Part shown: piece after piece, positions 7,748-48,111 of the stretch | Layout: each line of letters begins with the position of its first letter | How positions within the stretch are numbered: position 1 is the first letter of the stretch | Source of the DNA: Candidatus Magasanikiibacteriota bacterium | GTDB lineage: Bacteria; Patescibacteriota; Patescibacteriia; Magasanikbacterales; GWA2-37-8 | Assembly: GCA_963802255.1 (NCBI GenBank) | Contig: CAWDHY010000002.1 | Location: 4,867 to 68,866, forward strand | DNA length: 64,000 nucleotides | Direction: 5' to 3' | Translations under genes and position numbers: made by a program | The notes under the pieces: model-generated | The model's input: only the letters and a program-made list of their open reading frames with translations | Database searches by the model: none | Told to the model about the DNA's origin: nothing

Positions 7748-9076
7748 ATGTTTGCCTTTACCTACTCAGCCGCAATTCTTGCAATCATCAATCTGGGATT
7801 TGCGGCTTTTCTTATTATCAAAAAACGGGAAATAAGACTTGCAAAATATTTAGCTGCTCTTTTGGCAGCCAGCACGATTTGTTTATTGGCAAACGCGTTA
7901 GCTGATGTTTCTTATACGGAAAAATCTCTTATTTTTTGGGCTGGCACGGCGTTAATTGGAGCTATTTTTGCAATGGCTATCTACGCTCATCTGATTGAAG
8001 TTTTTACCGGTCATCAAAATACTGTCCGTAAAATTATTTTTATATACTTTCCGGCAATTATTTTATCTTCTTTTGCTTATTCTAAATTCAGCATTGCATC
8101 AACAAACTTTCCGTTTAACAAAGTAGCTGAATCGACTATAGGTCCTTTGTACTTGTTCGTTCTCAGTTATACGGTAATTCTGTGGATTTTCAGTTTAGCG
8201 CGGGTAGTTCAAATGAGGAGAAACGCAACTGTAGTACAAAGAGCGCAAATAAGTTATATTTTCCTTGGCTTCGCGATAACTTCACTTGGTACAATGATTT
8301 TTAATGCCGTACTTCCGCTTTTTGGCAATATCACTTTTTTTACTCTTGGCCCTCAATGTATAGTATTTTTAAACGCAGCTCTTGCCTATTCCATCCTCAA
8401 ACATGGCTTGCTGAATTTTAAAATAATCATTCAAAAGTCAATAATTTACTCTGTCATAATAGGCGCGGTAATTGGTTTTTATCTCCTGATAATAAATACA
8501 GCATTAATCTGGCTAAATTTATCAAAATCAATATCATATCCTGCCGCTTCGCTTTTAGCTGCCATAGTGGGCGCAGTTAGTATTCCGCCGATAAACAAAT
8601 TTCTGCAGAAAATAACCGACAAAATATTTTTTAAGGACCACATTTCATATTCGGAGGCGATGTATAATCTAAGCTTAGTGCTAAATATAAATATTGGGTT
8701 GAACTCACTGCTAGAAAATACAACAAAAGAATTATATAAAACTTTTAAACCAACAAACCTTAAAATTTATTTGGTAAGAGAAAAATTACTTTTTGAAAGA
8801 AACAGCCTGGCAAGGGTTGCGAATGTTAGCCACGAAGATTCATTTGAAATAATGCAAAGTGAAAACGACGATACTTTATTCGTCAATGCCGAACATGACG
8901 GAGCTAATTTGGCTCAAATTTTGATTGGCGAAAAAATAACCGGTGAAATATATTTACCGGAGGATCGTGATATATTAAATACTTTTTCTTTTCAGTTTGC
9001 ACTGGCTTTAGAAAAAACATTTCTTTTTGAGAGACTTAGAAGTAAAATTGGCGACATAAAAAAAGAAGCGGTATAA
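7748..9076 (+). CDS. Polytopic membrane protein (~9 TM helices) with a soluble C-terminal domain; sensor-like
   Basis: Successive hydrophobic helices over the first ~290 aa and a ~150-aa hydrophilic tail. Very AT-rich (~30% GC). Confidence 0.6.
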   Translation: MFAFTYSAAILAIINLGFAAFLIIKKREIRLAKYLAALLAASTICLLANALADVSYTEKSLIFWAGTALIGAIFAMAIYAHLIEVFTGHQNTVRKIIFIYFPAIILSSFAYSKFSIASTNFPFNKVAESTIGPLYLFVLSYTVILWIFSLARVVQMRRNATVVQRAQISYIFLGFAITSLGTMIFNAVLPLFGNITFFTLGPQCIVFLNAALAYSILKHGLLNFKIIIQKSIIYSVIIGAVIGFYLLIINTALIWLNLSKSISYPAASLLAAIVGAVSIPPINKFLQKITDKIFFKDHISYSEAMYNLSLVLNINIGLNSLLENTTKELYKTFKPTNLKIYLVREKLLFERNSLARVANVSHEDSFEIMQSENDDTLFVNAEHDGANLAQILIGEKITGEIYLPEDRDILNTFSFQFALALEKTFLFERLRSKIGDIKKEAV

Positions 9077-13875: not shown

Positions 13876-13896
13876 AAATGAATTTTAGTAAATATA

Positions 13897-14766
13897 TTAT
13901 TGAGGCAAACAATCAACTCCACAAGGAACGGATGGCATGTCTTTAACAGGACACCCCGCCATAGAACAGTCTTCAAAAACATCGCCCTTAGGAGGCAGTG
14001 GCATCGGAGGCATGGGGTCTGTTGACGATCCAAAACGGCGGTGCACGCCACGGCGTATCATCATCATTTCATCGTTTTTAACAACATGAATATTTTCCGG
14101 CTCAAAAACCCCACTTTTCTTTTCGCCGATAGCCACAATAAATGATCCTTCTTTTAGTTCCTGTTCCGGAAGGCTTTTTAGTTTACTGATATCAATTTTT
14201 TCAATACCACGCGGCGTCTGAATACTGATCATAGCGCCGTCTAACTTTACTATCCGACCGGCCATGCCGCGATTGCGATCGTCCAGACCGCGATTAAATA
14301 ACGGACGAAAAATCATACCCGTTGGATTTGGCCCAAAAGCATGGCGTTCTATCCGTTCAGCCAGGCTGGTATATGTCAAAATTATTCCAAGTACCATTAT
14401 AAAAATAACGAGACCGACGGCTATTCTGCCAAAAGGCTTCTCATAGAGAAAACCACTTTTCTTAATGATAAACGCAGATACCAATACAAGGGCTATTAAA
14501 CCGGCGGCAAGCGCAAAGGGAAAAGATTCCAAAAAAGCATAAAAACCACGACTGCCAAAACTTAAGTAGTCCAGATTATCGGAAGTTTTTAAATAAAAAA
14601 GCACCAAATTAAAAAATAATACGGCTAATAGAACACTGAGCGCCACCGCACTGCCCAAACCCAATTTTTCGGCAAGAAAAATATATTTTGAGCGCAATTT
14701 AATACGGCCAGTTTTTATCTGCGACATCACCTTTTCTTCAAGATTATTTTTATTATTCTCCTCCAT
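13897..14766 (-). CDS. Membrane protein co-transcribed with the ECF sigma factor (possible anti-sigma factor)
   Basis: Overlaps the sigma gene by 14 nt. Multiple TM segments and a Cys-rich C-terminus (CSMAGCPVKDMPSVPCGVDC). Confidence 0.45.
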   Translation of the reverse strand: MEENNKNNLEEKVMSQIKTGRIKLRSKYIFLAEKLGLGSAVALSVLLAVLFFNLVLFYLKTSDNLDYLSFGSRGFYAFLESFPFALAAGLIALVLVSAFIIKKSGFLYEKPFGRIAVGLVIFIMVLGIILTYTSLAERIERHAFGPNPTGMIFRPLFNRGLDDRNRGMAGRIVKLDGAMISIQTPRGIEKIDISKLKSLPEQELKEGSFIVAIGEKKSGVFEPENIHVVKNDEMMMIRRGVHRRFGSSTDPMPPMPLPPKGDVFEDCSMAGCPVKDMPSVPCGVDCLPQ

Positions 14767-24906: not shown

Positions 24907-25818
24907 TTAAATTATTAATAAAATTCTCTCAATTAATAATCTGGGGTGAACATTGCGGCCAAGTAATTCCCGTGCCTTTCTTATTTCATCAATTATTTTC
25001 AGTGTTTGAACCGGCGAAAAATATTTACCGGCTACGGGCTGACCCAAAAAAGAGTTTCTCCAAAGCATTGTCCAAAGATCCAAAATATTTTTTAATTTAT
25101 CGCGTCCTCGCACTGCGTCATCCTTATCGCCGAACAATTCTTCGGTCGCTGAAATTTTTTCAAAAAACGGCCTACCAACAATTTTTCCCAAGCGCTCAAT
25201 CTCTAAAACATATTCGCTCATTTTTTCCTTGTCCTTCAAAAATTTCACCGCCCGCCCCGGCCTGCCCCACGATGCTTCAGCCGCCAGATTAACCGCTTCC
25301 GGAGCGTCGTCAAATTTCATCAGAGCGTCTGCTATTTCTTTTTCAGGAACGAGAGAAAAATTTATATGCTGGCAACGTGAAAGAACAGTTTCCGGCAAAT
25401 CTCTTTCATTTTCTGTAAGCAAAAAAATTAAACTATTTTCCACCGATTCTTCAAGAGTTTTTAAAAGCGCATTGGCGGCTTCAATATTTATTTTCTCCGC
25501 TTCATCAATTATGACAATCTTTTTTCCGCCCAGCCACGACCTGTTTTGTAAAAAATTCCCAACTGTTTTCGCCTGACTGACAATAATATCTTTTTTTAAT
25601 TTTCCTGTTTTTTCTTCGACAGAACGTTCAATATATAAATAATCGGCATGAATTGCCAGTTTGTCGAACTCCGTATTCAATGCTTTTGCCGCAATATATT
25701 TTGCCACTGTACGCTTACCCACATGGCCCGGCCCGGAAAAACAATAGGCATGGGACAACATATCGTTCTCAAGTGCGTGGGTCAAAAATTGCAGGTTTTT
25801 TTGGTGTCCGATTATCAT
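24907..25818 (-). CDS. holB: DNA polymerase III delta-prime subunit
   Basis: HAYCFSGPGHVGK P-loop-like motif, IIDEAEKINIEAANALLKTLEE clamp-loader box; 303 aa. Confidence 0.75.
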   Translation of the reverse strand: MIIGHQKNLQFLTHALENDMLSHAYCFSGPGHVGKRTVAKYIAAKALNTEFDKLAIHADYLYIERSVEEKTGKLKKDIIVSQAKTVGNFLQNRSWLGGKKIVIIDEAEKINIEAANALLKTLEESVENSLIFLLTENERDLPETVLSRCQHINFSLVPEKEIADALMKFDDAPEAVNLAAEASWGRPGRAVKFLKDKEKMSEYVLEIERLGKIVGRPFFEKISATEELFGDKDDAVRGRDKLKNILDLWTMLWRNSFLGQPVAGKYFSPVQTLKIIDEIRKARELLGRNVHPRLLIERILLII

Positions 25819-32136: not shown

Positions 32137-34383
32137 ATGAACCCTGCACTCCAATTAAACGAGTTTTTTGTTGAAGGCGACAATCAGGAGCTTTCGCATG
32201 TTTTATTGCATATCATACAGCCTTCTACTCCGGAAGAGGAAAAAGAAAAAGGCTATTTTTTTGTTGCTTGTGAAATAAATAACGGAGACAAAGAGGATGT
32301 ATTTAACTTGCAGGCTCTTATGGACCGGGTGGAAAATGACTATTACGAGATTCCGAATGAGCCAAATAAAGATTCATTGGAGATAATATTAGATAAAATC
32401 AATCACGACAATTTCGCATTAAACAGCCCTGATTCCGAATTGCATTGTCTGGTGGGGGCATTGCGCGGCAATGAATTGGTATTTTCTTTCTGCGGCCGGC
32501 CGGAAGCGATTCTGTTCTACAAAAATAAATCCGGCCAATTCCAAAAAATGGATTTGGTGGCTGCCAACGAAGAAGACGCCGATGAGGAGAAGCTTTTTTC
32601 ACAAATAATTCAGGGTCACGTCAGCTCAGGCGATTATTTTTTTGCCGGCACTTCACATATAGCGAGCTGTTTCAACCACGACCGTCTTCAAAAAATTGTA
32701 ACCGGCGGAAGAACCACCGAACAAAGCGCCGAACACTTTGAAAAAGTGCTTGCCGGTATAAAAAACGGTTATTCATTTGGCGGTCTGATAATGCATTTCG
32801 AACCGGACGTAAATATAGAAAAGGCTGATAAGATTTCCAGAGTTGCGAGTGAAAATACGATATTTAACGCTGAACAAAAAACCGCGCGTACCCTATCCCC
32901 TTCCCTTTTTGACAATTTGAACAATAAAGTAAATGAATCGGAAGATGACGAAAATAAAGATTCTACTGAAGAACATGAAAAAACCGCGATTCAAATTGCA
33001 TCCGCTCACCTTAGACAAAGACCAGTAGTAAAAACAGCTGAACCTATCGGAGAAAAAATATTTGTCATCTTAAAAATCATCGGAAAAGGTTTGCGCTATA
33101 TCGGATATGGTATATATTATTTTTTCTTCATTTTAGCGAAACTGGTTATCAATTTCGGCAGATTGATTATAATGCTCTTTCTTGTGGCCACCAATATTCA
33201 GAACCGACGCCGGGCCATTCTTGAATCATGGGGAGACAGTATAAAAACGTTTAAAAAGCGAATCCATCAGTTGCCCCTAATTACGAAGATTTTAGCTATT
33301 GCGTCAGTTATTTTTGCCATTGTTTTTGTTGGAAGTGTTTTGTATCTTCAGGCGCAAAAAAATCAGGCGGAAGAAAATAGGACTTACCTTGAAGGTCTTC
33401 AACTGGTAAAAAATAAAACTGATGCGGCAGAAAGCGCACTGATATATGGGGATGAAAATAGTGCAAAACAGCAGGCAAATGACGCAAAAAATTTAATGGC
33501 TACATTTGCATGCCAACCAACTGATACGCAAATTTGTGACGAAATATCCGAGCGTTTGTCCGCTCTCTCACAAAAGCTAAGCCGAATGGATATTGTTGAT
33601 ACAGCTATTATAGTCGATTGGGGGGCGCTTGGATTTAACGTAAGCGAAAAAATTCTTAAGGTAGAAAGTAAAATTATCGGTTTTTCTTCAAATACCTCAA
33701 CTATCGCGGTATATGATCTCTTAACCAAAGAAAGTAAATTTATCACTGCGTCGGAAAATATTTTTAGCGGATTCATTGCCGGCGCCGTGCCGAAAGAAAA
33801 TGATTATGCGGTTCTTCTCGCTTCAGATAAAAAATCAATTGCAATATTTGATCCAAAAACTTCAACCGTAAAAAAAGGCGAAATCAGCTACAGCGGAAAT
33901 CCTGAAATTAAAGCATTACTCATTTATAACAGACGCTTATATTCTTTGGACACTTTATCAAATCAGATTTACCGGCACGACAATATTAAAGACGGCTTCG
34001 GACAAGGAAAAAACTGGCTACAGGAGGCCGGTACCAATGTCCGCGAGGGTGTGGATATTGCCATAGATGGAGACCTTTATGTTCTTAAGTCAACCGGAGA
34101 ACTTATGAAGTTTGCCCAAGGAATACCACAACTGCTGAATCTTGAAACGCCGGAACCGCCGCTTGATTCGGCAAATGAAATTTGGACTTACACCGATTTT
34201 AATAGTATTTATTTGCTCGATGCAAAAAATAAGAGGATAATTATCTATGATAAAACCGGCAAGTTTTTAAGGCAGATGACAGCCGATGATTTTACCGGCC
34301 CAACATCTTTTGTTGTTGAAGAAGCTAAAAAAGATATTTTTGCGCTTGACTCGAACAAAGTATTACTGATTGAATTGAAATAA
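32137..34383 (+). CDS. Large membrane protein (748 aa): cytoplasmic N-domain, central TM helices, C-terminal beta-propeller-like (NHL/YVTN-like) repeat domain
   Basis: Hydrophobic segments at ~aa 305-350 and 380-405. The C-terminal ~300 aa contains repeated hydrophobic-x-IYD-like strands, e.g. SIYLLDAKNKRIIIYDKTGKFLRQM, KALLIYNRRLYSLD, DIAIDGDLYVLKS. Confidence 0.55.
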   Translation: MNPALQLNEFFVEGDNQELSHVLLHIIQPSTPEEEKEKGYFFVACEINNGDKEDVFNLQALMDRVENDYYEIPNEPNKDSLEIILDKINHDNFALNSPDSELHCLVGALRGNELVFSFCGRPEAILFYKNKSGQFQKMDLVAANEEDADEEKLFSQIIQGHVSSGDYFFAGTSHIASCFNHDRLQKIVTGGRTTEQSAEHFEKVLAGIKNGYSFGGLIMHFEPDVNIEKADKISRVASENTIFNAEQKTARTLSPSLFDNLNNKVNESEDDENKDSTEEHEKTAIQIASAHLRQRPVVKTAEPIGEKIFVILKIIGKGLRYIGYGIYYFFFILAKLVINFGRLIIMLFLVATNIQNRRRAILESWGDSIKTFKKRIHQLPLITKILAIASVIFAIVFVGSVLYLQAQKNQAEENRTYLEGLQLVKNKTDAAESALIYGDENSAKQQANDAKNLMATFACQPTDTQICDEISERLSALSQKLSRMDIVDTAIIVDWGALGFNVSEKILKVESKIIGFSSNTSTIAVYDLLTKESKFITASENIFSGFIAGAVPKENDYAVLLASDKKSIAIFDPKTSTVKKGEISYSGNPEIKALLIYNRRLYSLDTLSNQIYRHDNIKDGFGQGKNWLQEAGTNVREGVDIAIDGDLYVLKSTGELMKFAQGIPQLLNLETPEPPLDSANEIWTYTDFNSIYLLDAKNKRIIIYDKTGKFLRQMTADDFTGPTSFVVEEAKKDIFALDSNKVLLIELK

Positions 34384-35474: not shown

Positions 35475-35999
35475 ATGAATCAAAATATAGCTGAAAAAAA
35501 CCTAACCCCGGGCCCAGAACCGGAGAATTTGTTAAAGCGTTCAGAAACGCCCGCTATTCATATGGAAGAAGAACCGTTAAAAGAGGCGGTTGAGGAACAG
35601 GAAAGTCTGGAAGAAATAAAGCAAACTGAAATAAAAGAAGGAGGAATTTTACCAAAACCTAAACAGCGCCGCCGAACATCTGTCACTCCGCCCACCCCTC
35701 GTGATGCGCTTACTGTCCAAGTTGAGGGTATTCTTGCCGCGGGGTTGAAAGATACTTATGAAAAATTACCGCCGATCGCCCAGCAGGAGTTTAAACTCAA
35801 GGGAGAAGAAACCGCTGGAAAAATCCGCGAGCTATTACGGTCAACCAAGATAAAAGTAAAAAAAATATTCCGCTTAATAATTGAATGGCTGATGCTTTTA
35901 CCAAGTGTAAATCATTTTTTTCTTGAACAGGAAGCAAAAATTAAAACCGATAAAATTATTGAACTTAAAAAGCTCGACAATGAAGGACCCCATAAATAA
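35475..35999 (+). CDS. Hypothetical protein (174 aa); acidic N-terminus, one C-terminal hydrophobic segment
   Basis: Extended -10 (TGaTATAAT) and a TTGTCA-17-TATGAT promoter directly upstream. Its stop is 9 nt before the coupling-protein-like gene. Confidence 0.45.
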   Translation: MNQNIAEKNLTPGPEPENLLKRSETPAIHMEEEPLKEAVEEQESLEEIKQTEIKEGGILPKPKQRRRTSVTPPTPRDALTVQVEGILAAGLKDTYEKLPPIAQQEFKLKGEETAGKIRELLRSTKIKVKKIFRLIIEWLMLLPSVNHFFLEQEAKIKTDKIIELKKLDNEGPHK

Positions 36000-36007: not shown

Positions 36008-38548
36008 ATGGACCAGATTGACTATTCAACTTTAGTTGCATCAAATTCTGATCTTATATTAATCCTGGCAGCCGCCGTTGGATCCATTTTAACTTTTATC
36101 ATTTTTTTAAATGTAATCAGAAAGATACTGCATGCTAAGGCTAAGACGAGCAAAGCATTTCACCGGACAGTTTTATTAATAAAAATTCCAAAGGAACGCG
36201 GCGGAGAAAAACAAGAATCCGGACAGGAAGATAATATCAATCAAATTCGCGAGCAGATAGCCATGGCCGAAACGCTTTTTTCCACCATTGCCGGATTATC
36301 TGCGGAAAAAGGTTTTATGGCCTGGTTAAGAGGAAGAAACGACCATTTGGCATTTGAGATCGTGGTTTCCAATGGAAAAATATCATTTTATGCGGCCATC
36401 CCCGACAAGTTAAAAGATTTTATTGGACAACAAATTCATGCCCAATATCCCCATTCGCAAATTACGGAGGAGTCCGATTACAATATTTTTAAACCCGACA
36501 GCCATATTGTCGGTGCATATCTGCATTTCAAATCACGCTCCGCCTTTCCGCTAAAGACATACAAACAACTGGAGAGCGATCCCCTACTCTCCCTTTTAAA
36601 TCCGCTGAGCAAATTATCCGAAAATGAAGGAGCGCTTATTCAATATGTAATCCGCCCGGCTCCGCCTGCATGGCGAAGCCAAGGAGTAAGCATGATAAGA
36701 GAAATTCGCGGAGGACAAAAATTTGAAAATGTTGCGAGCAGAAGCGGCGTGTCAAAATCCTTAAATAAATGGAAGAAATTTTTTTCAAGTGGAAAAAAAG
36801 ATAATTCAAAACAAGGGCCTGGCGCCACAGAGCCCTATCGCCTAACTCAGCAGGAAGAAGAAATGGTGAAAAGCATGGAAGAAAAATTAAGTTTAGGCGG
36901 ACTGGAGTTGACGATACGACTGGTCAGTTCAGCCCCAACTCGCGAAAAAGCAAAACTAATTTTAGAAAATTCTCTTAACTCTTTCAGTCAGTATAGCATC
37001 TACCGCTATGGTAACGCCCTAGGAGCATCAGTGCCTGCCAAACCGGGAAAACTTATCCGTGAATCAATTTATCGCTCACCACAGGAAAAGTATAATATGG
37101 TGGCAAGCACAGCTGAAATGGCAGGTTTTTGGCATTTGCCGCTACCTTCCACCGAAACACCTCATATCGACTGGCTAGGAGCACGAAAGGCCCCACCGCC
37201 GTTAAATATGCCGACTGAAGGCATTATCTTAGGCAGAACGCTTTACAGGGGCGAAGAAACGATTATCCGCATGACTCGATCCGACCGGCGTCGACATCTT
37301 TACACAATCGGTAAATCCGGCTCGGGCAAATCGGTATTTATACAGAATTTAGCGGTGCAGGACGTCCTAAATGGCGAAGGAGTTTGCGTTATTGACCCAC
37401 ATGGCGATTTTGCAGAGTACGTTTTGCAACATGTTCCCAAGGAACGGGCGGAAGATGTAATTTATTTTAATCCATCCGATGTTGATCGTCCGGTCGGCAT
37501 GAATATGCTTGAAATTAAAACCGAGGATCAAAAAGATTTCGCCACTCAAGAAATGATTTCAATTTTTTATAAAATGGTAACAGACCCCTCGATGATCGGC
37601 CCGATGTTCGAGCATAATATGCGCAACGTTATGCTGACATTAATGTCAGATATGGAAATGCCGGGAACGATCGCTGAAATTCCGCGTATGTTTACGGACG
37701 ACGCATTTGTTGAGTCATGGAAAAAGAAATTGAAAGACCCGGTGGTAATGTCATTCTGGGAAAAGGAAATGGCCAAAACATCCGACTTTCATAAATCGGA
37801 AATGCTTGGCTATCTCATTTCTAAAGTCGGACGCTTTACTGAAAATGCCATGATCCGAAATATTATCGGCCAATCACATTCGGGCTTTAATTTCCGCGAC
37901 GTCATGGACCAAAAAAAGATACTTTTGGTAAATCTGGCAAAGGGCTTGGTCGGCGAAATTAACGCCAATCTTCTCGGAATGATTATCGTATCAAAATTAC
38001 AAATGGCGGCCTTGGAACGCGCTTCATTGCCCGAAGAAGAACGACATGATTTTTATCTGTACATCGACGAGTTCCAAAACTTTATAACAGACTCGATCGC
38101 CACAATCCTTTCTGAAGCACGAAAATACCGTTTAGAGTTAATCATCGCCCATCAGTATATGAAACAACTGGAAGATAATAAAGGCAAAACAACAGTCCGC
38201 GACGCTGTGCTGGGTAATGCCGGTACATTGGTTTCATTCCGTATCGGAATTGAAGATGCAGAAATACTTCAAAAAGAATTTGCCCCGGTATTTTCAGCAT
38301 ATGATTTAATTAACGTAGAGCAATATACGGCCTATGTTAAATTGCTTATTGACAACACGGCAGCAAAACCGTTTAATATGATGACTTATCCGCCTCAGCC
38401 GGGAAACAAGGAGCTGGCTGCTGCCATTAAGGAGTTATCGAGGCTTAAATATGGCCGGCCGCGCGAAATTGTGGAAGCAGAAATACTTGAGAGATCCCAG
38501 CTCGGATCAGCTGTGCCTCAAAACACGATAAGCGAACAATCACTCTAA
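36008..38548 (+). CDS. TraD/TrwB/VirD4-family (type IV secretion coupling-protein-like) ATPase with an extra ~420-aa N-terminal domain
   Basis: Walker A GKSGSGKS (nt ~37311-37334), followed by VIDPHGDF and FNPSDVDRP (TrwB_AAD-like). Walker B YIDEFQNF. C-terminal HQYMKQL...GNAGTLVSFRIG matches the TraG/TraD C-terminal pattern. N-terminal TM helix (aa 15-35). Confidence 0.7.
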   Translation: MDQIDYSTLVASNSDLILILAAAVGSILTFIIFLNVIRKILHAKAKTSKAFHRTVLLIKIPKERGGEKQESGQEDNINQIREQIAMAETLFSTIAGLSAEKGFMAWLRGRNDHLAFEIVVSNGKISFYAAIPDKLKDFIGQQIHAQYPHSQITEESDYNIFKPDSHIVGAYLHFKSRSAFPLKTYKQLESDPLLSLLNPLSKLSENEGALIQYVIRPAPPAWRSQGVSMIREIRGGQKFENVASRSGVSKSLNKWKKFFSSGKKDNSKQGPGATEPYRLTQQEEEMVKSMEEKLSLGGLELTIRLVSSAPTREKAKLILENSLNSFSQYSIYRYGNALGASVPAKPGKLIRESIYRSPQEKYNMVASTAEMAGFWHLPLPSTETPHIDWLGARKAPPPLNMPTEGIILGRTLYRGEETIIRMTRSDRRRHLYTIGKSGSGKSVFIQNLAVQDVLNGEGVCVIDPHGDFAEYVLQHVPKERAEDVIYFNPSDVDRPVGMNMLEIKTEDQKDFATQEMISIFYKMVTDPSMIGPMFEHNMRNVMLTLMSDMEMPGTIAEIPRMFTDDAFVESWKKKLKDPVVMSFWEKEMAKTSDFHKSEMLGYLISKVGRFTENAMIRNIIGQSHSGFNFRDVMDQKKILLVNLAKGLVGEINANLLGMIIVSKLQMAALERASLPEEERHDFYLYIDEFQNFITDSIATILSEARKYRLELIIAHQYMKQLEDNKGKTTVRDAVLGNAGTLVSFRIGIEDAEILQKEFAPVFSAYDLINVEQYTAYVKLLIDNTAAKPFNMMTYPPQPGNKELAAAIKELSRLKYGRPREIVEAEILERSQLGSAVPQNTISEQSL

Positions 38549-38557: not shown

Positions 38558-40117
38558 ATGGCAACATTATACCGAAAATACCGTCCGCAAAAATTTGCCG
38601 ATCTTGTCGGTCAGGAACATCTGGTGCAAACTCTGACTAACGAAATCAGCTCGGGTAAAATTGCCCATGCTTATTTATTCTCCGGGCCTCGTGGCATCGG
38701 CAAAACAACAATGGCACGTCTTTTAGCTAAAGCGATTAATTGCGAAAATCATCGTGACGGTAAATTTGAGCCATGCGACGACTGTACATCATGCAAAGAA
38801 ATATCCGTTGCGCGTAATATTGACGTAATAGAAATTGATGCCGCCTCAAATACCGGCGTCGATAATGTAAGAGAAAATATTATTGACAATGCACAATTTA
38901 AACCGACAAAATCAAAATATAAAGTGTTTATCATTGACGAGGTTCACATGCTTTCCAGCAGTTCCTTCAATGCTCTGCTTAAAACCCTCGAAGAACCACC
39001 GGCTCACGTCATTTTTGTTCTGGCAACCACTGAACTTCAAAAGTTGCCCGCTACAATAATATCACGCTGCCAAAGATTTAACTTCAAAAAAATTCCTGAA
39101 GAAATAATGATGAAAAGGCTTGTCGAAATAGCTGAAGGCGAAAAAATTAAAATTGAAAAAGATGTTTTAAAACGGGTAATAACAAAAAGTGACGGTTGCA
39201 TGCGCGATGCGGAAAGTTTGCTGGGACAAATAATGTCGTTAAATCTGAAAAAAATCGGATCTGAAGACGCGGCCCAAATATTACCCACTGCCGATATTGA
39301 ATCTGCCCTTAATTATATTCAAGCTATTGCTGAAAAAAATCCTGGCAGAGCAATTTCAATTTTGGAAGAATTAGCGAAAGATGGCATGTCAATTGATCAA
39401 TTTGCCTTGGATGTAATTGATGTTTTACGGGCAACAATGATTGCCGAAACGGGAAGTACGGCATACGGTCTGGACTATACGGAAAAAGACAGAAAACAAC
39501 TGATGCCGCTGGCAAAAAAGTTAGGCAACCAATTATTAATCCCCCTTATCGATGCTGCATTAAAGCGTAAATCAGAAATTAAACAATCAACCGTTCCACA
39601 GTTGCCGATGGAACTTTTGGCGGTTGAATTCGGATCAGACAATGATGATGAGACGCCGAAAAATCCGCCGATAATTAAGCACATCGCGTCAGATGAGACG
39701 CCGGAAAATAGCGCGGAAAGTCAGCCGGGCATTTCAAATTCAAAAATTCACGAGCCGGAGAAGACTACAAGCACAACTTCAGCTTCTGAATCATTAACTA
39801 TTGAACAAATTTCAGAAAAATGGCAGGATGCAATAAGAATCCTATCGGAGAACTTTCCTTCACTTGTTTTCGTTCTAAAAATGGCAGAAATTTCAAGCGC
39901 CGGAAAGAATAAATTCAATCTTATGTTCCCTTACTCTTTTCACAAAGAAAAAGTAGAAGACAAAAAATGTCGGAGAGCGATTGAAGAAATAATGTCCGAT
40001 TTATTAAAACAAAAAATATCTTTTTCCTGTAGTGTAAGTGAACAGGAGGTAAAATCCGTTGAGGAAACGGATCTGTCAGGCATAGCTGCGCAATTTGGCG
40101 GTGAAGTTATCTCGTAA
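38558..40117 (+). CDS. dnaX: DNA polymerase III subunit gamma/tau
   Basis: HAYLFSGPRGIGKTT Walker A, zinc-binding CENHRDGKFEPCDDCTSC, clamp-loader sensor motifs; 519 aa. Confidence 0.9.
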   Translation: MATLYRKYRPQKFADLVGQEHLVQTLTNEISSGKIAHAYLFSGPRGIGKTTMARLLAKAINCENHRDGKFEPCDDCTSCKEISVARNIDVIEIDAASNTGVDNVRENIIDNAQFKPTKSKYKVFIIDEVHMLSSSSFNALLKTLEEPPAHVIFVLATTELQKLPATIISRCQRFNFKKIPEEIMMKRLVEIAEGEKIKIEKDVLKRVITKSDGCMRDAESLLGQIMSLNLKKIGSEDAAQILPTADIESALNYIQAIAEKNPGRAISILEELAKDGMSIDQFALDVIDVLRATMIAETGSTAYGLDYTEKDRKQLMPLAKKLGNQLLIPLIDAALKRKSEIKQSTVPQLPMELLAVEFGSDNDDETPKNPPIIKHIASDETPENSAESQPGISNSKIHEPEKTTSTTSASESLTIEQISEKWQDAIRILSENFPSLVFVLKMAEISSAGKNKFNLMFPYSFHKEKVEDKKCRRAIEEIMSDLLKQKISFSCSVSEQEVKSVEETDLSGIAAQFGGEVIS

Positions 40118-40125: not shown

Positions 40126-40950
40126 ATGAATACAATGAATATCTTAATTACAATGGCTTTGGGCATTGCTTTTCCCACGACTCCGATTATCACTCCACCG
40201 GAGATGGTTGACCTCGATGTTCCTTTTGTAACAGAAATTCCTGACGGACAATGGACGGCTCCTTGGAACAACGCCTGTGAAGAAGCGTCTGTCACTATGG
40301 TTGACCAATATTATTTAGGAGTTAAAGAAATCTCAAGAGCTGAATCAAAAAAACTGATGTGGCCGCTCTTTGCCGCAGAGATCAAACTTTTTGGCTATAA
40401 CGCGGACACAAATGCTGAAGAAACAGCGGAATTGGCGGAAAACATGCTTGATTTTGCGATCACAATTAAGGATAACCCGACTCTTGAAGATATAAAAAAT
40501 GAGCTTCGCAATAAACGGCCGGTAATTTCCATGCATTATGGCTTTGCATTAAACAACCCTGCTTTACGCTTTCGCAGAGAAGGATCCTCATTCCACATGA
40601 TGGTTATCAGCGGTTTTGATGATAAGACGCAAGAATTTATAGTTGAAGACCCGGGAAATCCTAACGGGGTTGACTTTCGCTATAAATATGATAACATCAT
40701 GAGCACTCTGCATGATTTCAATCACAAAGACAAAAAGGCTGACGGACCAGCCAGGGTACTTTTCACTTCAGAAAAAATGTTGGCAAAAGCCGCTGGTGGT
40801 ACAAGAATATTCCTGATAAAAGACAATAAAAAACACTACATAGCTCATCCTGATCTATTCAAAAAATACGGATGGAGCTGGACAAAAGTAAAATCAGTGG
40901 ATAAATCTTTTCTTGACAACCTGGAAAACGGCGAGGCAATACGTAATTGA
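40126..40950 (+). CDS. Secreted protein with a C39-like (papain-fold) peptidase domain
   Basis: Signal peptide; candidate Cys (WNNACEEASVTM), His (SSFHMMVISGFDD) and Asp (VEDPGN) spaced as in the Peptidase_C39_2 family. Resemblance only. Confidence 0.45.
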   Translation: MNTMNILITMALGIAFPTTPIITPPEMVDLDVPFVTEIPDGQWTAPWNNACEEASVTMVDQYYLGVKEISRAESKKLMWPLFAAEIKLFGYNADTNAEETAELAENMLDFAITIKDNPTLEDIKNELRNKRPVISMHYGFALNNPALRFRREGSSFHMMVISGFDDKTQEFIVEDPGNPNGVDFRYKYDNIMSTLHDFNHKDKKADGPARVLFTSEKMLAKAAGGTRIFLIKDNKKHYIAHPDLFKKYGWSWTKVKSVDKSFLDNLENGEAIRN

Positions 40951-41141: not shown

Positions 41142-41774
41142 TTATTTTTTCGGAGCACCCGCTTTTTTTGCCGGTGTTTTTTTCTTAGCAACAGTTTTTT
41201 TTGCCAATGACTTAGGCTTTGCCGTCACTTTATTATTTTTTTTGATTTCATTTTTTTCTTCAACAATTTTCGTTGCTTCTTTTTCCTTTTTTCCGCCTCC
41301 CAATGCCTGCAAAATTTGATCGAGCTTAACGTTTAATACAGCAAACTGCTGTTTAATATTTTCACCGCCTTTTTCTTGTGATCCTCCGGCGCTATTCTTT
41401 CCAAAACAAGCATCACAAAATACCGACTTTCCCGGCATTGGTTTAAAAGGTACTCGACACTTTGTTCCGCATTTAGCGCAAACTGTCTCGTGCATTTGTT
41501 TATCATCACGTGGTCTTCCCTGTCTTTCACCGCCAAATCTACTATTTGACCTATCATTGCTGCCACCACCTTGTCTGTCAAAACAAGCACTGCAAAAAAC
41601 AGGCCTATCACCTGTTGGCTTAAAAGGAATTTCACATTCTTTACCGCATTTACTGCAGATTGCCTGATGCATTTGCGTCCTACCGCCGCCAAAACCGCCT
41701 CTATTACCCCCGCCGAATGGCCTTCCGCCAAATCTGCTTCCTCCCGGTCTATTACTTCGGTTAAAATCTCCCAT
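41142..41774 (-). CDS. Nucleic-acid-binding-like protein: RGG/FGG-rich N-terminus, two tandem CxxC-x12-CxxC zinc ribbons, Lys-rich histone-H1-like tail
   Basis: Start at the internal Met (MGDFNRSNRPGG...). Repeats QAICSKCGKECEIPFKPTGDRPVFCSACF and ETVCAKCGTKCRVPFKPMPGKSVFCDACF. Tail KKTVAKKKTPAKKAGAPKK. Confidence 0.6.
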   Translation of the reverse strand: MGDFNRSNRPGGSRFGGRPFGGGNRGGFGGGRTQMHQAICSKCGKECEIPFKPTGDRPVFCSACFDRQGGGSNDRSNSRFGGERQGRPRDDKQMHETVCAKCGTKCRVPFKPMPGKSVFCDACFGKNSAGGSQEKGGENIKQQFAVLNVKLDQILQALGGGKKEKEATKIVEEKNEIKKNNKVTAKPKSLAKKTVAKKKTPAKKAGAPKK

Positions 41775-41903
41775 ATATTTGTATAAATGAGTTATAAATA
41801 CTGTAAATCGTAGTCTATCACAGTTTATATAAAAAATCAATGGTCAGCCTTGTTCATGGAGAATATTGCTTTCCCTGCATCCAACATGATATTCTATATT
41901 CAT

Positions 41904-42599
41904 ATGCAAAAAATAGCCATTATTATTCCCACCTATCACGAAAAAGTGAATATCCGGCCGCTAGTCGAGAGAATTTTTGCCCAAAAAATTCCGAATTTAA
42001 CAATCATTTTTGTCGACGATAATTCATCTGACGGCACACCAGAAGAAATACATGAATTATCAAAACAATATCAGATAGAAATAATCAGGAGGGCCAACAA
42101 ACTGGGAATCGGCTCCGCTTATATTTGCGGTTTTCGTAAAGCATTAAATGAACAATATGATTTGATTATGGAAATGGACGCTGATTTATCGCATGCACCC
42201 GAAGATATTCCAAAAATTTTGACGGCAATTTATAACGGAGCGGACATGGTTATCGGTTCCAGAAAAATTCCCGGCGGTGAAATTGTCGGATGGAATTGGA
42301 GAAGGCACTTAATGAGCAACGGGGCGATGATTATTTCCAGATTAATGCTTAAACTAAAAACAAAAGATGTGACAGCCGGATTTAGATGTTACAAAAGAAA
42401 AGTTTTAGAAAAAATTGATTTAGAAAAAATAAAAAGCAATGGCTATGCTTTTCAGGAAGAGATGCTTTTTTGGGCGGAAAAGCTAGGTTTTAAAGTTGTT
42501 GAAGTACCGGTAAAATTTATTGATCGAAAAATGGGACACTCAAAACTGTCAGGCAAGGACATAGTGGAGTTTTTTAAAGTGATGATAAAATTGTTTTAA
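41904..42599 (+). CDS. GT2 polyprenol-phosphate glycosyltransferase (dolichyl-phosphate mannose synthase-like)
   Basis: IIIPTYHEKVNI...FVDDNSSDGT (GT-A DxD region). Start set at MQKIAII. Confidence 0.8.
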   Translation: MQKIAIIIPTYHEKVNIRPLVERIFAQKIPNLTIIFVDDNSSDGTPEEIHELSKQYQIEIIRRANKLGIGSAYICGFRKALNEQYDLIMEMDADLSHAPEDIPKILTAIYNGADMVIGSRKIPGGEIVGWNWRRHLMSNGAMIISRLMLKLKTKDVTAGFRCYKRKVLEKIDLEKIKSNGYAFQEEMLFWAEKLGFKVVEVPVKFIDRKMGHSKLSGKDIVEFFKVMIKLF

Positions 42600-43503
42600 G
42601 CTCATCCAAAGTATTTACCCGCACTAATTTAGCGCGTAGTTTTTTTATACCGAAAATTTCATTGATCCGGTCTCCATGAAAATACCACGCGAGATGTTTT
42701 CTGAAGGACGTCATTCCCCTCTCACCGTAATGTTTAACATGAAGCTCAGCATGACGAATTACGGTGTCAATTATTTGGCTCATTTCTGCGTGATTATTAT
42801 TTGTATTCAATATCCATGGATTGCCAAGCGCCCCTCTGCCTATCATCACACCATCAGCACCGGTTATTTGCAGACAATTAAGAATATCTTCTTTAGTTCG
42901 AATATCACCGTTTGCCAATAGAGGTATTGAAAGCGTTTTTTTAACTTCTGCGATTCTCCGCCAATTGGCCTGTCCTGAATATCCTTGAATTTTTGTTCTG
43001 CCATGAACAGCAATCAAATCAATACCGGCATTTTCTAATCGTTTAGAAAAATCAAAAATTTCATCATCCCGGCTCCAGCCAAGACGCGTCTTTGCGGAAA
43101 GTGGCACACCGATATTTTCTTTTTTTATAGCCTCGACAATTTTTATCGCTAAATCCGGATGACGCATCAAAGACGCTCCGGCTTTTGTTTTATGTGCAAC
43201 TTTTGGTACCGGACATCCCATGTTAATATCAATACCATCTGGTTTAAAACTATCGACAATTAATCGCGCGGCTTTAGCCATTGTCAAAGGATCATCGCCA
43301 AATATCTGAATAATAACAGGATGCTCTTTCCCCATGATTTCGCACATGCGTAATGTTTTTTCATTACATCGCACTATCGCCGCAGAGCTCACCATTTCAC
43401 GGTAAATTACAAAATCATTACCGCTGATTTCACGGCATAATAAACCAAAAGGCCGATCGGTATAGTCGGCCATTGGAGCAAGGGCAATAATAGATTTAGG
43501 CAT
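42574..43503 (-). CDS. dusB: tRNA-dihydrouridine synthase
   Basis: ALAPMADYTDRPFGLLCRE, NMGCPVPKV FMN/TIM-barrel motifs. Start set at MPKSII to remove the poly-Arg N-terminal read-through. Confidence 0.85.
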   Translation of the reverse strand: MPKSIIALAPMADYTDRPFGLLCREISGNDFVIYREMVSSAAIVRCNEKTLRMCEIMGKEHPVIIQIFGDDPLTMAKAARLIVDSFKPDGIDINMGCPVPKVAHKTKAGASLMRHPDLAIKIVEAIKKENIGVPLSAKTRLGWSRDDEIFDFSKRLENAGIDLIAVHGRTKIQGYSGQANWRRIAEVKKTLSIPLLANGDIRTKEDILNCLQITGADGVMIGRGALGNPWILNTNNNHAEMSQIIDTVIRHAELHVKHYGERGMTSFRKHLAWYFHGDRINEIFGIKKLRAKLVRVNTLDELKTILSSL

Positions 43504-44875
43504 AAGGTAAATCTTCCGGCGCCGGCGCCTTCGGCTTTTCTTCTTTATTTTGATCAACCGCCTTTGATTTTAAAGGCATGGTAAAATGCTCTACCGGTAA
43601 ATTTATTGGTGGTTCGCCACGTTTAATATTTGCTTTCTGGATCAACGGAGTTTTAACCAGCGGTAATGGAAAATGCCAGATAGTAGCCAGTTCTTCAATG
43701 TTAAGAATATACGGGTCATTGGTAAATTTTAGCGCACGATTTTTATAAGCTGATACGATGTTTTGACCGCTAATTATCTTCGCCTTAAAACCATTGCGGT
43801 TGTTTATATAAAATTGATTCATGGCACCGATTAAACCCTGGACGCATTTATGCGGTTTGAATAATTCATTTTTCGCGGCATATAAGACGCGTACTCTGGA
43901 TTTAAACCCAAGTTTTGATATTTTATCTTCAATAGATTCAATTACCGCTCTTGCTCCCGGCGTTAAGTCGGATACTTTTCCCACAGTTTCTTCCTTCTTT
44001 TTTTTCTCTTCTTCGGCGCTAAAATCATATTTCCATGCCTGGATAGCTGTTTTTAACACCCATTCCGGCGCACTCCCAACCATACTAACTAAGCCGTTTT
44101 TCTTCGGCTCTTTTTTATTGGCAACTATTTTCTTAACCAAATCAATACCATCTTTTTTCCAGCTATTATCAACCGGTAAGACAACAATTTGCATCCATAA
44201 ATGTTCACCCGGCCCAATGCGGGAAAAATTTTCCAATATGGCGGCCATAGGATCGGTAAATACGACATCTTTGGAAATAGTATACTCGAATTCAGAATAA
44301 ACCCGGATTGGATATACGTCACTTTCCGCTAAACTAAACTCCGCGCCTTGCGCATCATATTCGGAATTGGGAAATGTCTCCGGTATCATTGAAACATAAT
44401 CTTCAACTTCAGTAATTTCCGCTTCCGAATACTGGGCATAAATTGCCGCTTCAACTAAATCTCGAAAAGATACTTCGGTGCGCACAACAAATTGTATATA
44501 CCCTTCGACACTGATAATTTCGAAACTAAACCATTTCGGCAGTTTCCCCTCAAAGTACCTTTCATAAACATTATAATTTACTTGTGCGCCACTCAAATGT
44601 ACAAAAATTTGTTCAACCGCTTTTGGCGATTGGACAAACTCTGCCGGAATATCCACCGCAAGCACGGTCCATTGCCAAGTTTTTAAGTACTCCTTCTGTT
44701 TAAACAACATCCATTCGTCAAGCGCTTTTTTAAATAAAAAAATTGCGATTAGCCACCATACTAAAATCGCAAAAATTGCTTTTGCCATTTCAAAAGGAGG
44801 CAATGACAAAAATGTCTGCCAAAAAGACAAATTAATACTGAAGCCAAACGGTGTTTCAAAAAGCCACGGCTCCAT
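43496..44875 (-). CDS. Stand-alone paralog of the N-terminal domain of the 36008..38548 coupling-protein-like gene (no ATPase domain)
   Basis: Two N-terminal TMs, then a body colinear with aa 1-420 of the 846-aa protein, e.g. IWHFPLPLVKTPLIQKANIKRGEPPINLP versus FWHLPLPSTETPHIDWLGARKAPPPLNMP, and FEIISVEGYIQFVV versus FEIVVSNGKISFYAA. Confidence 0.6.
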   Translation of the reverse strand: MEPWLFETPFGFSINLSFWQTFLSLPPFEMAKAIFAILVWWLIAIFLFKKALDEWMLFKQKEYLKTWQWTVLAVDIPAEFVQSPKAVEQIFVHLSGAQVNYNVYERYFEGKLPKWFSFEIISVEGYIQFVVRTEVSFRDLVEAAIYAQYSEAEITEVEDYVSMIPETFPNSEYDAQGAEFSLAESDVYPIRVYSEFEYTISKDVVFTDPMAAILENFSRIGPGEHLWMQIVVLPVDNSWKKDGIDLVKKIVANKKEPKKNGLVSMVGSAPEWVLKTAIQAWKYDFSAEEEKKKKEETVGKVSDLTPGARAVIESIEDKISKLGFKSRVRVLYAAKNELFKPHKCVQGLIGAMNQFYINNRNGFKAKIISGQNIVSAYKNRALKFTNDPYILNIEELATIWHFPLPLVKTPLIQKANIKRGEPPINLPVEHFTMPLKSKAVDQNKEEKPKAPAPEDLPYA

Positions 44876-45085
44876 AACAACATTATTTTAAGGCGTTGAA
44901 AATGCCGCCATAAACAATAAGAACGGCAAAGCCCGTCCACCACCAACTAAAACCGGCGGAAAAATAACCGCCAAGATATGCTAACAAAGCAATCATAGTG
45001 ATGATGAATGCCACAAAATGACGAGTGGAATTATCGCTCATAATACAATATTTTTAATGATGTTATTATACCACAATTCTAAAAA

Positions 45086-45117
45086 CAAAAAAACCGCCCA
45101 AAAGGGCGGCTTTTTTA
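45086..45117. terminator. Bidirectional hairpin terminator downstream of secF
   Basis: aaaaaaaCCGCCC-AAAA-GGGCGGctttttt. Confidence 0.6.
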
Positions 45118-46047: not shown

Positions 46048-48111
46048 TTACAATTTTTTTACTTCTTCCGACTTAACACCGCCCAAAAATAACCAGTTGG
46101 CTTCATCGTGCTTAAAGAATCCAAAAATCCAGCGCATTATATTTCGTGTAATAATTATTGCCGTAAACATTGATACAACAACGCCGATAAACAGAGTTAC
46201 GGCAAAACCCTGAACAAATCCGGTACCGATCCAAATGAGAAATACGCAGGATAAAAGCGTAGTAATGTTTGAATCGCGAATTGATGTCCATGCGCGTAAA
46301 AAAGCTTCCTCGGTCGCTGACCGTAAACTTTTTCCCGCCCGCAATTCCTCTTTAAGACGCTCAAATACCAATACATTTGCGTCAACAGCCATGCCGATAG
46401 ATAATATGAAACCGGCAATACCTGAAAGAGTCAATGTCGCATTAATCGTCTTGAAAACGGCCAAAGTTAACGCACTGTAGATGGTTAAAGTAATAACTGA
46501 TAATAAACCGGGGAGACGATAATAGAGAATCATAAAAAGCATAACCAACAACAATCCGACCACACCAGCTTTATAACTTGATTTCATTGAATCGGCTCCT
46601 AAAGTTGCATCAACTTTTTGCTGTCCAATCAACTCAATCGGCACCGGCAATGCACCGGAATTTAAACGCTGGGCAAGCAATTTAGCTTCATCCCACTTGA
46701 AACCTCCGGAAATAACCGCACTTCCGTCAAGAATCGGCTCGTTTACGCGAGGAATACTGATTGCTTCACCGTCTAAAAATATAGCGACAAGCTTATCAAC
46801 ATTTCTCGTTGTGATATCGGAAAATAATTTTGCCCCTTCATCATTAAACTGAAGGTTAACCTGAACCTCGCCGTTGCGGGTATCTTGTGTCACTTCGGCC
46901 TTTTTCAGCTGCTTGCCGGTTAGGCCGGTAAATTTCCATTGATCATTTGGAGGTAAAATATCTGTAACACTTTTTGTTTTAACAAAAATTCTCGCCATTT
47001 CATATTCCTTGGGTGTCTCTTCTCCTCTTTTAAGTATCAGATGATAGCCGAATTTTGTTTCAACCGGTCCGATGATTTGATTTACCGGAGCATCATAAAC
47101 CGCCTGTTCAAACTCCGGCACAACGACACCCTTTCCAAAAGTGCCCAAGTCTCCTCCACTCTCACTTACGCCCGGTTCAGTAGAATTCTGCTGTGCCATT
47201 TCTGAAAAGTTATCAACAGTAACATCTTGTTTTAACGCTTCTATCTTTGCCTTGGCGTCTTCTTTGCTGAGTGTACTGCCGCAAAGTTCCGCTCCTTTAT
47301 AACAAATTAGTATATGCGCGGCGGTTACCTGTTTTTCACCATCACGGACGCTTAATCTTTTAACTACATTCAAACCATCCGGGGTTATGACAACTTCTTT
47401 GGAGACATCTCCATCATTATGTTTAGCCGCCCAATCATAAATTTCAGGATAAATACTGTTATTTATAAACCCAAGATTTCCACCATCCCGCTTGTTGCTT
47501 TCATCTTCACTATACTTAATGGCAGTGGCGGAAAAATCCGCTTTATTGTTAATCTCTTTTTGAACCTCTTTAATTTTTTTATCGGCTTTAGCGTTAAAAT
47601 CATTCATTTCTTTTGTTTCTTCAGCCGTTAATTCTCGCGGAGGTTCGTTGTTTTCTTCTTTAAATTCCAGTACCGGCGTTTCACCGATCATTTTAATCGC
47701 ATCTGTAACATTGGCTACGCCCGGAAGTTCTATGATTAATCTGTATTCCTCTCCTACTCTGGTCGTTTGCACCAATGGTTCGGCTACCCCAAGGCCACCT
47801 CGAACACGGCGTTCGATTACATCGCGCACACCTTCAACTGCCGCCGCTCTTTCTGTGGGCGGTATACTGTCAATTTTTGCGACATACTGCAAATGGGCTC
47901 CGCCTTGAAGGTCTAATCCTAAATTAAAGCCGCTGGCGGGTAAATTTGGTATCCCAAGGCTGACTTTTGAATTAACCCAGCCGATCGCTTTATTAAAATG
48001 TCCAGGCAAAATTATTATCAGACAAACAATAAAAAGTGCCATAATACCGGCCATCCTCCATTTTATCTGTGAGCGTGTCGCGGTTTTAACAACGTTCTTA
48101 GTTTTAGCCAT
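46048..48111 (-). CDS. secD: Protein translocase subunit SecD with a parvulin-type PPIase domain inserted in the periplasmic P1 head
   Basis: SecD TM1, conserved P1 base (LVAIFLDGEAISIPRV) and C-terminal six-TM core. Between them (aa ~250-365, nt ~47020-47345) lies AAHILICYKG...GGDLGTFGKGVVVPEFEQAVY...FGYHLILKRGE, a PpiC/parvulin rotamase signature. Confidence 0.85.
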   Translation of the reverse strand: MAKTKNVVKTATRSQIKWRMAGIMALFIVCLIIILPGHFNKAIGWVNSKVSLGIPNLPASGFNLGLDLQGGAHLQYVAKIDSIPPTERAAAVEGVRDVIERRVRGGLGVAEPLVQTTRVGEEYRLIIELPGVANVTDAIKMIGETPVLEFKEENNEPPRELTAEETKEMNDFNAKADKKIKEVQKEINNKADFSATAIKYSEDESNKRDGGNLGFINNSIYPEIYDWAAKHNDGDVSKEVVITPDGLNVVKRLSVRDGEKQVTAAHILICYKGAELCGSTLSKEDAKAKIEALKQDVTVDNFSEMAQQNSTEPGVSESGGDLGTFGKGVVVPEFEQAVYDAPVNQIIGPVETKFGYHLILKRGEETPKEYEMARIFVKTKSVTDILPPNDQWKFTGLTGKQLKKAEVTQDTRNGEVQVNLQFNDEGAKLFSDITTRNVDKLVAIFLDGEAISIPRVNEPILDGSAVISGGFKWDEAKLLAQRLNSGALPVPIELIGQQKVDATLGADSMKSSYKAGVVGLLLVMLFMILYYRLPGLLSVITLTIYSALTLAVFKTINATLTLSGIAGFILSIGMAVDANVLVFERLKEELRAGKSLRSATEEAFLRAWTSIRDSNITTLLSCVFLIWIGTGFVQGFAVTLFIGVVVSMFTAIIITRNIMRWIFGFFKHDEANWLFLGGVKSEEVKKL

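Follow-up and report, generated by a model that had tools for sequence, protein, structure and literature searches.

In the whole stretch of DNA analysed here, a 64-kb window out of the 255-kb contig CAWDHY010000002.1, two genes encode proteins of one family, DUF8128 (PF26449): an 846-aa protein in which this domain is fused to an ATPase resembling type IV coupling proteins (T4CPs), hereafter A-type, and, 5 kb away, a free protein of 459 aa. The source organism belongs to Patescibacteria and lies near metagenome-assembled genomes (MAGs) of Magasanikbacteria, a group placed in class ABY1 (PMC12102498). Judged by gene order and tree placement, the free gene is a positional orthologue of the N-subunit of a split system, where a DUF8128 subunit and its motor are encoded separately, and not a recent offshoot of the 846-aa gene, as the term "stand-alone paralog" in a preliminary description made from the letters of the window might suggest. 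The reading that we cautiously hold to be probable is that this N-subunit has been retained and may now serve as a membrane-anchored adaptor for a T4CP-like motor, with partner and role proposed by analogy.

The origin of the free gene is traced through its relatives. Scanning of species-representative genomes gave 440 confirmed relatives, and the best 80 loci were analysed. In 17 of them a free-type open reading frame (ORF) of 462-511 aa has a separate ATPase gene behind it, at a distance of -65 to +79 nt (ATPase-adjacent arrangement, B-type ATPase); in the remaining loci, the window included, no ATPase comes after the free gene (ATPase-less). The ATPase-adjacent free-type proteins are 37-42% identical to the free protein of the window, as against the 22% that it shares with the 846-aa protein, so that descent from the latter is not borne out. 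B-type ATPases share 40-46% identity with the C-half of the 846-aa protein, and many have a zf_Tbcl_2 zinc finger at the C-terminus. Two more pairs were found from the ATPase side, and all 19 B-type ATPase genes with context examined are located directly behind a DUF8128 gene. No B-type ATPase was detected within 10 kb in any ATPase-less locus or within the 64-kb window, where the DUF8128 gene is followed by dusB and, of the traits of the split pair, the small upstream ORF is present and the adjacent ATPase is absent. A locus labelled Magasanikbacteria (L089) has the order secA...secD-secF-(123 aa)-DUF8128-ATPase, and the window reads secA-secD-secF-52 aa-DUF8128-dusB, which is the same chromosomal position as that of the L089 pair; moreover, the 123-aa ORF of L089 is a tandem duplicate of the 52-aa unit of the window. 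When 82 DUF8128 domains are placed on a neighbour-joining tree with A-type N-domains as the root, ATPase-adjacent subunits are basal and all genuinely ATPase-less copies fall into one clade. Synteny with L089 together with this placement therefore identifies the gene of the window as the counterpart of the split-system N-subunit. It appears that the ATPase gene was uncoupled a single time and that many species then retained the subunit.

The free copy itself is confirmed by its sequence as intact and functional-looking, not a pseudogene. Pairwise BLASTP (E = 6e-20, 22% identity over 417 columns) aligns its residues 34-429 colinearly with residues 19-404 of the fused protein, in agreement with the colinearity noticed in the preliminary description, and the shared blocks listed there (FSFEIISVEGYIQF/LAFEIVVSNGKISF, IYAQYSEAEITE/IHAQYPHSQITE, and IWHFPLP..TP..GEPPINLP/FWHLPLP..TP..APPPLNMP) all lie within this alignment. 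The N-terminal transmembrane (TM) helices described in the plural were an overstatement, since each protein has a single hydrophobic segment (residues 30-48 in the free and 9-27 in the fused one), flanked in the free protein by a Lys-rich stretch at the C-terminal side. The suggestion that the product stops exactly where the ATPase would begin stands only in part: the homology does end nearby, at free residue 429, but this is ~20-30 residues short of the ATPase-domain start of the fused protein, and the free protein continues over 30 further residues comprising a linker and the tip EDLPYA. Neither the ORF translation nor Pfam and NCBIfam scans gave a P-loop or ATPase-family match in the 459-aa protein, and ATPase queries against the 64-kb window matched at 37.2-38.5 kb only, none of them behind the 459-aa gene; therefore there is no frameshifted ATPase behind the free gene, and the pseudogenised continuation considered in the preliminary description is dismissed. 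About 60 species-level representatives of the ATPase-less clade are 38-88% identical at full length, and 13 columns are invariant across free and fused types and 37 near-invariant.

Two further signals point to partners of the free protein. The first is its C-terminus. A recognisable tip is present in ~90% of 337 free-type proteins, belonging to the classes PxNLPh (107), acidic-LP[YF][AG] (108), aromatic-[GA] (59), or other xLPh (28). The tail before the tip extends over 26-276 residues in the PxNLPh class; conservation of the tip behind a tail of varying length is what marks a tethered docking peptide. All ATPase-adjacent loci have the PPxNLPh tip; acidic and aromatic tips are confined to the ATPase-less clade, where most loci end with acidic-LP[YF][AG] or aromatic-[GA]. 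A related PPxxLP motif is located at the end of DUF8128 in 302 of the 337 free and 16 out of 16 fused proteins, and in the fused protein it lies at the junction with the ATPase. The second signal is gene proximity: the A-type cluster (174-aa ORF, 846-aa gene, dnaX, and C39 peptidase) is no farther than 10 kb away in 16 of 33 ATPase-less and in none of 11 ATPase-adjacent loci (Fisher p = 0.003 for loci with full flanks, phylogeny being ignored). Besides that, a ~53-aa ORF with two TM segments, homologous to the 52-aa one of the window, immediately precedes the free gene in almost every ATPase-less locus and in several of the ATPase-adjacent loci (L055, L061, L063, and L069); its tandem duplication in L089 (6219..6590) has produced a single 123-aa, four-TM-like protein.

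As to the family, the preliminary description knew no Pfam assignment for this domain, which is in fact already catalogued. The identical database protein (P0001, 100%) bears a precomputed PF26449 tag, as do all but one of the 119 other matches among the best 120 from a 5.8-billion-protein collection, and gene tables give PF26449 the name DUF8128. The local Pfam and NCBIfam scan of the free protein gave no match because the PF26449 model is absent from the local Pfam copy. In orthologues of the 846-aa protein PF26449 precedes TrwB_AAD_bind, T4SS-DNA_transf, DUF87, and TraG-D_C; the module thus occurs both free and fused to an ATPase, as had been stated, and the profile search suggested for its recurrence, run exhaustively, returned 4,303 clusters (at the 50% identity level) with E <= 1e-3 and 1,289 with E <= 1e-30, mostly from Patescibacteria and also from Bacillus phages. 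Most of what a search with the N-half of the 846-aa protein retrieved consisted of fragments at contig ends. The phage family phrog_5156 matches the free copy over DUF8128 (E = 4.4e-15) and the 846-aa protein end to end (E = 8.5e-89). No paper mentioning DUF8128 or PF26449 was found in a literature search. Many MAGs with this Patescibacteria-type locus (L005-L082) are titled "uncultured Gammaproteobacteria bacterium", which, judged by gene content and similarity, looks like a labelling artefact.

Predicted structures relate DUF8128 to the VirB4 ATPases of type IV secretion systems (T4SSs). The only significant Protein Data Bank (PDB) matches found by Foldseek for the AlphaFold2 (AF2) model of the free protein (mean per-residue confidence, pLDDT, 83.7; pTM 0.75) are 13 TrwK/VirB4 chains of the R388 T4SS, with E = 1e-5 to 2e-3 and probability 0.98-1.0 over ~430 columns. 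The model of the 846-aa protein (pLDDT 77, N-domain >90) is best matched by full-length TrwK (E = 3e-9, ~790 columns), which in the R388 structures (PDB 7O42, 7O43, 8RTB, and 8RTD) likewise consists of a ~400-residue N-domain and a P-loop C-domain in colinear order, and DotL, Cagbeta, and HerA align with its ATPase half only. The resemblance of DUF8128 to the VirB4 N-terminal domain is hence supported at the fold level, and, since full-length TrwK is the best match of its model over both halves, the 846-aa protein is predicted to be VirB4-like in layout, with a motor that is T4CP-like by sequence. Unlike R388 VirB4, DUF8128 proteins have an N-terminal TM helix of their own and no VirB4-family sequence match, and there are no VirB3, VirB6, or VirB8 genes nearby.

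The assignment of the motors to T4CPs (TrwB, VirD4, TraD, DotL, and Cagbeta) follows from their sequences. Both the A-type ATPase half and the B-type ATPases pass the Pfam thresholds of TrwB_AAD_bind, T4SS-DNA_transf, and TraG-D_C, and TrwB and DotL are their best PDB sequence matches. In the 846-aa protein the domains TrwB_AAD_bind (40.3 bits vs cut-off 20.5), T4SS-DNA_transf, DUF87, and TraG-D_C are matched on residues 411-755, the matches beginning at residues 411-428; the P-loop reads GKSGSGKS, and TrwB is the nearest relative of the ATPase half by sequence (phmmer 4e-9). While Pfam domain models pass, NCBIfam T4CP models all remain far below cut-off for this protein (e.g., TIGR03743, 47.5 vs 366 bits). 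In canonical T4CPs the TM segment leads straight into the nucleotide-binding domain, as in the TrwB structure, whereas the 846-aa protein has the ~350-residue DUF8128 domain between TM and ATPase. "Coupling-protein N-terminal module", the name given in the preliminary description, is therefore a misnomer for a domain whose predicted fold resembles the VirB4 N-terminal domain and is absent from canonical VirD4/TrwB. The systems also differ from T4CPs in having no relaxase or T4SS nearby and in the free copy without ATPase.

Fused DUF8128-ATPase architecture is shared with phage proteins of phrog_5156, namely gp156 of Bacillus phage G (tblastn 1e-44) and gp150 of phage JL. Among viral models, Foldseek matches the free model with gp156 (E = 2e-19) and also with gp155 of phage G (E = 6e-8), which by sequence is a VirB4-type ATPase (PF19044 and PF12846); at the level of models these matches give independent support to a VirB4-like fold. 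The short gp155 gene lies directly upstream of gp156 (L091 3243..7385). It was considered as a free ATPase-less DUF8128 protein beside the fused one and ruled out by its own VirB4-type P-loop, and no free ATPase-less copy was identified in phages. In phage JL (L092 2823..8314, gp155-gp149) the neighbours of the fused gp150 gene on either side are a StbA/ParM-like and a Replic_Relax gene.

How the free protein might act is suggested by two known arrangements. In R388 the interface in the dimer of VirB4central and VirB4outside is formed by the N-terminal domain of VirB4 (residues 15-400) alone, around which the two-TM protein VirB3 is wrapped (PMC9259494), and canonical T4SS loci of Patescibacteria are composed as VirB3-TrsD-VirB4, with a free N-domain-like protein (PMC12102498). 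It is because of analogy with these systems that an adaptor or scaffold role is proposed. The ancestral module would have consisted of three genes, for a small two-TM protein, a DUF8128 subunit, and, encoded apart from it, a zinc-finger ATPase of T4CP-like type; the ATPase gene appears to have gone from the locus once, in the clade of this genome, while the N-subunit and the small membrane protein were retained under purifying selection and the C-terminal tip changed. Held in the membrane with the 52-aa protein, the free protein may thus represent an ATPase-less adaptor or scaffold subunit, which would associate with a hexameric T4CP-like motor via DUF8128-DUF8128 contacts and/or the tethered C-terminal peptide. 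The likeliest motor here would be the fused paralogue, the only such motor in view, and docking of the free protein onto an ATPase-bearing partner, as put forward in the preliminary description, is a reasonable idea. Partner switching or competition with the 846-aa protein, also raised there, would have indirect support, from the changed C-terminal tip and from gene proximity.

Several observations weigh against such an adaptor. Half of the ATPase-less loci are without an A-type gene within 10 kb, the significance of proximity having been calculated irrespective of phylogeny; the search for a B-type ATPase covered 64 kb of the 255-kb contig; and the tree of DUF8128 domains carries no support values. 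The structural resemblance was obtained with predicted structures, and TM-scores are low (0.33-0.38 for the free model and 0.22 for the full-length one). Sequence-level homology of DUF8128 to TrsD, to TrsE/VirB4, to any PDB chain, or to Pfam VirB4 N-terminal families was sought and rejected, as all profile comparisons were negative: hhalign with TrsD of pGO1 gave a probability of 0.1% (E = 0.52), that with TrsE of pGO1 was negative as well, the VirB4 N-terminal Pfam families match none of 87 family members even at E <= 10, and the VirB4 family models TIGR00929 (14.3 bits at a cut-off of 643), CagE_TrbE_VirB, and TraC_F_IV are not matched. With low TM-scores and negative sequence tests, the likeness to the VirB4 N-terminal domain is therefore a matter of fold and not proven homology.

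The main rival explanation, somewhat unlikely in our estimation, assumes that the cognate B-type ATPase was relocated rather than lost, so that the free protein is still its N-subunit and has nothing to do with the 846-aa protein. It gains from the extreme conservation of B-type ATPases (71-92% identity among the best 120 of >8,000 matches), a sign that their function may be important and hard to dispense with, and from the abundance of T4CP homologues in Patescibacteria, 5,713 in 2,918 genomes or approximately two per genome (PMC12102498); in Table S3 of that work two T4CP matches are listed for one Magasanikbacteria assembly. Relocation sits poorly with the invariable position of the 19 B-type ATPase genes behind a DUF8128 gene and with their absence from the 10-kb surroundings of ATPase-less loci and from the window. 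Against it stand also another Magasanikbacteria assembly, with one T4CP match among 8 of its ~9 rows in Table S3, and, as weak evidence, the fact that none of the 120 B-type ATPases listed out of >8,000 is on a contig equal in length to one bearing an ATPase-less copy. Furthermore, the class of the tip changed exactly in the ATPase-less clade, which mere relocation does not predict. Less can be said for the free protein as a negative regulator or competitor capping or poisoning the assembly of the N-domain ring of the 846-aa protein, a role that appears decidedly unlikely. The DUF8128 fold and membrane anchor common to both proteins would allow it, the contacts between N-terminal domains of R388 VirB4 do mediate oligomer building (PMC9259494), and the genes are close together in about half of the loci; but identity between the two N-domains is only ~22%, their separation predates the radiation of these lineages, and the genes belong to different, divergently transcribed units that show no sign of co-regulation. 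Since the free type comes with a conserved small TM partner and, ancestrally, with an ATPase of its own, a constructive subunit is indicated rather than an inhibitor.

The likeness to TrsD raises another alternative, namely that the free protein is a TrsD-like part of a canonical Patescibacteria T4SS whose partner VirB4 is encoded elsewhere. TrsD, which is abundant in Patescibacteria, is described in PMC12102498 as free-standing and as a remote relative of the VirB4 N-terminus. VirB4 is the only PDB fold match of the free model, and the order of genes in T4SSs of the MPF-FATA type (TrsD and VirB4, i.e., TrsE, of pGO1; triplets of Patescibacteria) is the same, with a small membrane gene, a free N-like protein, and an ATPase, virB3 preceding trsD/virB4 as the small TM ORF precedes the free gene. 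Nevertheless, this possibility is very improbable, given that the profile comparison with pGO1 TrsD was negative (hhalign probability <1%) and that Patescibacterial TrsD carries PF11130 and adjoins virB4 (e.g., GCA_000990355.1 and GCA_000992085.1), whereas the free protein carries PF26449 and ancestrally adjoins an ATPase that is T4CP-like and not VirB4-like by sequence. In the window itself no ATPase is adjacent, and no T4SS parts (VirB4, VirB3, VirB6, and TrsD) or relaxase were found among the 40 larger ORFs scanned. Finally, that the free ORF is a decaying remnant of a once fused or paired gene, as the missing ATPase which accompanies it in other lineages might suggest, is effectively refuted by conservation: the frame is intact, ~60 representatives and the 13 invariant and 37 near-invariant columns are preserved, so are the tip and the upstream partner ORF, and nothing ATPase-like is left downstream.

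Returning to the retained N-subunit, its surroundings are those of a housekeeping locus. The gene is situated between dusB (42574..43557) and the 52-aa two-TM ORF that follows secF, and with dnaX, secDF, dusB, and corA among the neighbours in the window the context is not mobile, as the preliminary description had also judged. A terminator-like hairpin of secF and a promoter-like site before the 52-aa ORF, both pattern matches only, may delimit a separate transcription unit of the small ORF, the DUF8128 gene, and possibly dusB. Positions of all features are collected in Table 1.

Table 1. Features of the two DUF8128 loci in the 64-kb window (positions from the first letter of the window)
Feature	Position	Strand	Basis or remark
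Free DUF8128 protein, 459 aa: N-terminal TM helix, cytoplasmic DUF8128 domain, linker, C-terminal tip (predicted layout)	43496..44875	-	Intact ATG-started ORF
Predicted TM segment, free protein residues 30-48	44732..44788	-	Hydropathy peak 2.39; inside AF2 helix 26-64
DUF8128 core, free residues ~65-429, homologous to ~50-404 of the 846-aa protein	43589..44683	-	BLASTP, phrog_5156, Foldseek
Low-confidence linker, residues 430-453	43499..43588 (with tip)	-	AF2 pLDDT <50 for 424-447
Conserved tip EDLPYA, residues 454-459	43499..43516	-	Tip class common to 108/337 free-type proteins
52-aa two-TM protein, conserved partner gene	44883..45041	-	Stop 7 nt before DUF8128 start codon
secF terminator-like hairpin	45117..45086	-	Pattern match only (consensus scan)
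Promoter-like site before 52-aa ORF	45057..45030	-	Pattern match only (consensus scan)
A-type fused paralogue, 846 aa: TM, DUF8128, T4CP-like FtsK/HerA-superfamily ATPase	36008..38548	+	
DUF8128 part of A-type gene	36008..37237	+	
ATPase part of A-type gene	37238..38548	+	Pfam, phmmer
174-aa protein directly upstream of A-type gene	35475..35999	+	Conserved companion
dnaX	38558..40117	+	Syntenic with A-type gene across clade
C39-like peptidase	40126..40950	+	Syntenic with A-type gene across clade

The A-type gene has a conserved cluster of its own. The 174-aa ORF precedes it in 13 loci by tblastn (L001, L002, L014, L019, L020, L026-L028, L036, L044, and L047 among them), and the 174-aa protein gave no Pfam, PHROG, or PADLOC match. 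Farther upstream, a 748-aa protein (32137..34383, plus strand) has two central hydrophobic segments, a weak beta-propeller-like C-terminus, and no family assignment; being syntenic in relatives, the 748-aa and 174-aa proteins may be further parts of the A-type system. Two genes of clamp-loader type are present in the window, dnaX after the A-type ATPase and a shorter holB-like DNA_pol3_delta2 gene (24907..25818, minus strand). A defence system was considered as well and rejected, since annotation of the window gave no signature and only weak HerA/mad8 matches to the ATPase half of the 846-aa protein.

Between the two DUF8128 genes, on the minus strand (41142..41840), a 232-aa ORF with probable start at M23 (41774) encodes a ~210-aa protein with a Gly/Arg-rich N-part, two zf_Tbcl_2 treble-clef fingers (CxxC-x17-CxxC), and a Lys-rich tail. 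It was tried as a leftover of the tail of a B-type ATPase and discarded, the similarity being limited to the fingers and the position not conserved in close relatives. In SecD (46048..48111, minus strand) the P1 N-terminal subdomain is separated from the head subdomain by two inserted peptidyl-prolyl isomerase (PPIase, rotamase) domains; two such insertions occur also in L001 and L085, and L089 has one. In L002, a relative 51% identical, a diversity-generating retroelement (bAvd and RVT_1 reverse transcriptase, 12762..14179) lies between the free DUF8128 gene and dus. The part 1..8000 of the window has GC content of 0.46-0.47 as compared to ~0.40 elsewhere and encodes a PIF1-like helicase, an S24 (LexA/UmuD-like) peptidase, and an ImpB/UmuC-type Y-family polymerase; by composition and gene content, it may therefore be an acquired island or an SOS-type mutagenesis cassette. 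As for the split system, B-type ATPases (L089 8001..9740 and L090 8001..10124) are 71-92% identical among the best 120 of >8,000 matches vs ~40% for the adjacent DUF8128 N-subunits, and by these sequence comparisons motor and adaptor are evolving at very different rates.

What the DUF8128 machines handle is hinted at by the zinc finger of B-type ATPases, by the synteny of the A-type gene with dnaX, and by the genes of Replic_Relax and ParM-like type beside the homologue in phage JL, because of which nucleic acid may be supposed as the substrate. A bolder picture, which we consider unlikely, would unite DUF8128 proteins, the two-TM partner, and T4CP-like motors into a chromosomal translocation machine widespread among Patescibacteria, distinct from canonical T4SSs, similar to the VirB4 inner-membrane complex, and possibly housekeeping, where in this clade the N-subunit would have switched to the A-type motor to form a hexamer of dimers of the VirB4central/VirB4outside kind, its outer ring being catalytically empty.

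The 5,713 orphan T4CP homologues of Patescibacteria are rarely near virB4 and were regarded as possibly exapted (PMC12102498). The comparison made here shows, at the level of predicted structures, that at least two of these orphan lineages are DUF8128-plus-motor proteins with VirB4-like layout and not classical coupling proteins, existing in fused and split forms together with a small, conserved partner in the membrane and a C-terminal peptide on a tether. Up to now the domain was catalogued as a DUF only and the ATPases were counted as orphan T4CP homologues, and our literature search found nothing on the DUF8128/VirB4-like layout, on its fused and split forms, on the small membrane partner and the C-terminal tip, or on the clade without the ATPase. 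We rate the system as a VirB4/VirD4-family machine with a detachable N-subunit. The clade keeping this subunit without an adjacent motor represents a natural separation-of-function experiment and offers testable predictions as to who binds whom, for a DUF family without literature and in organisms where genetics is scarce.

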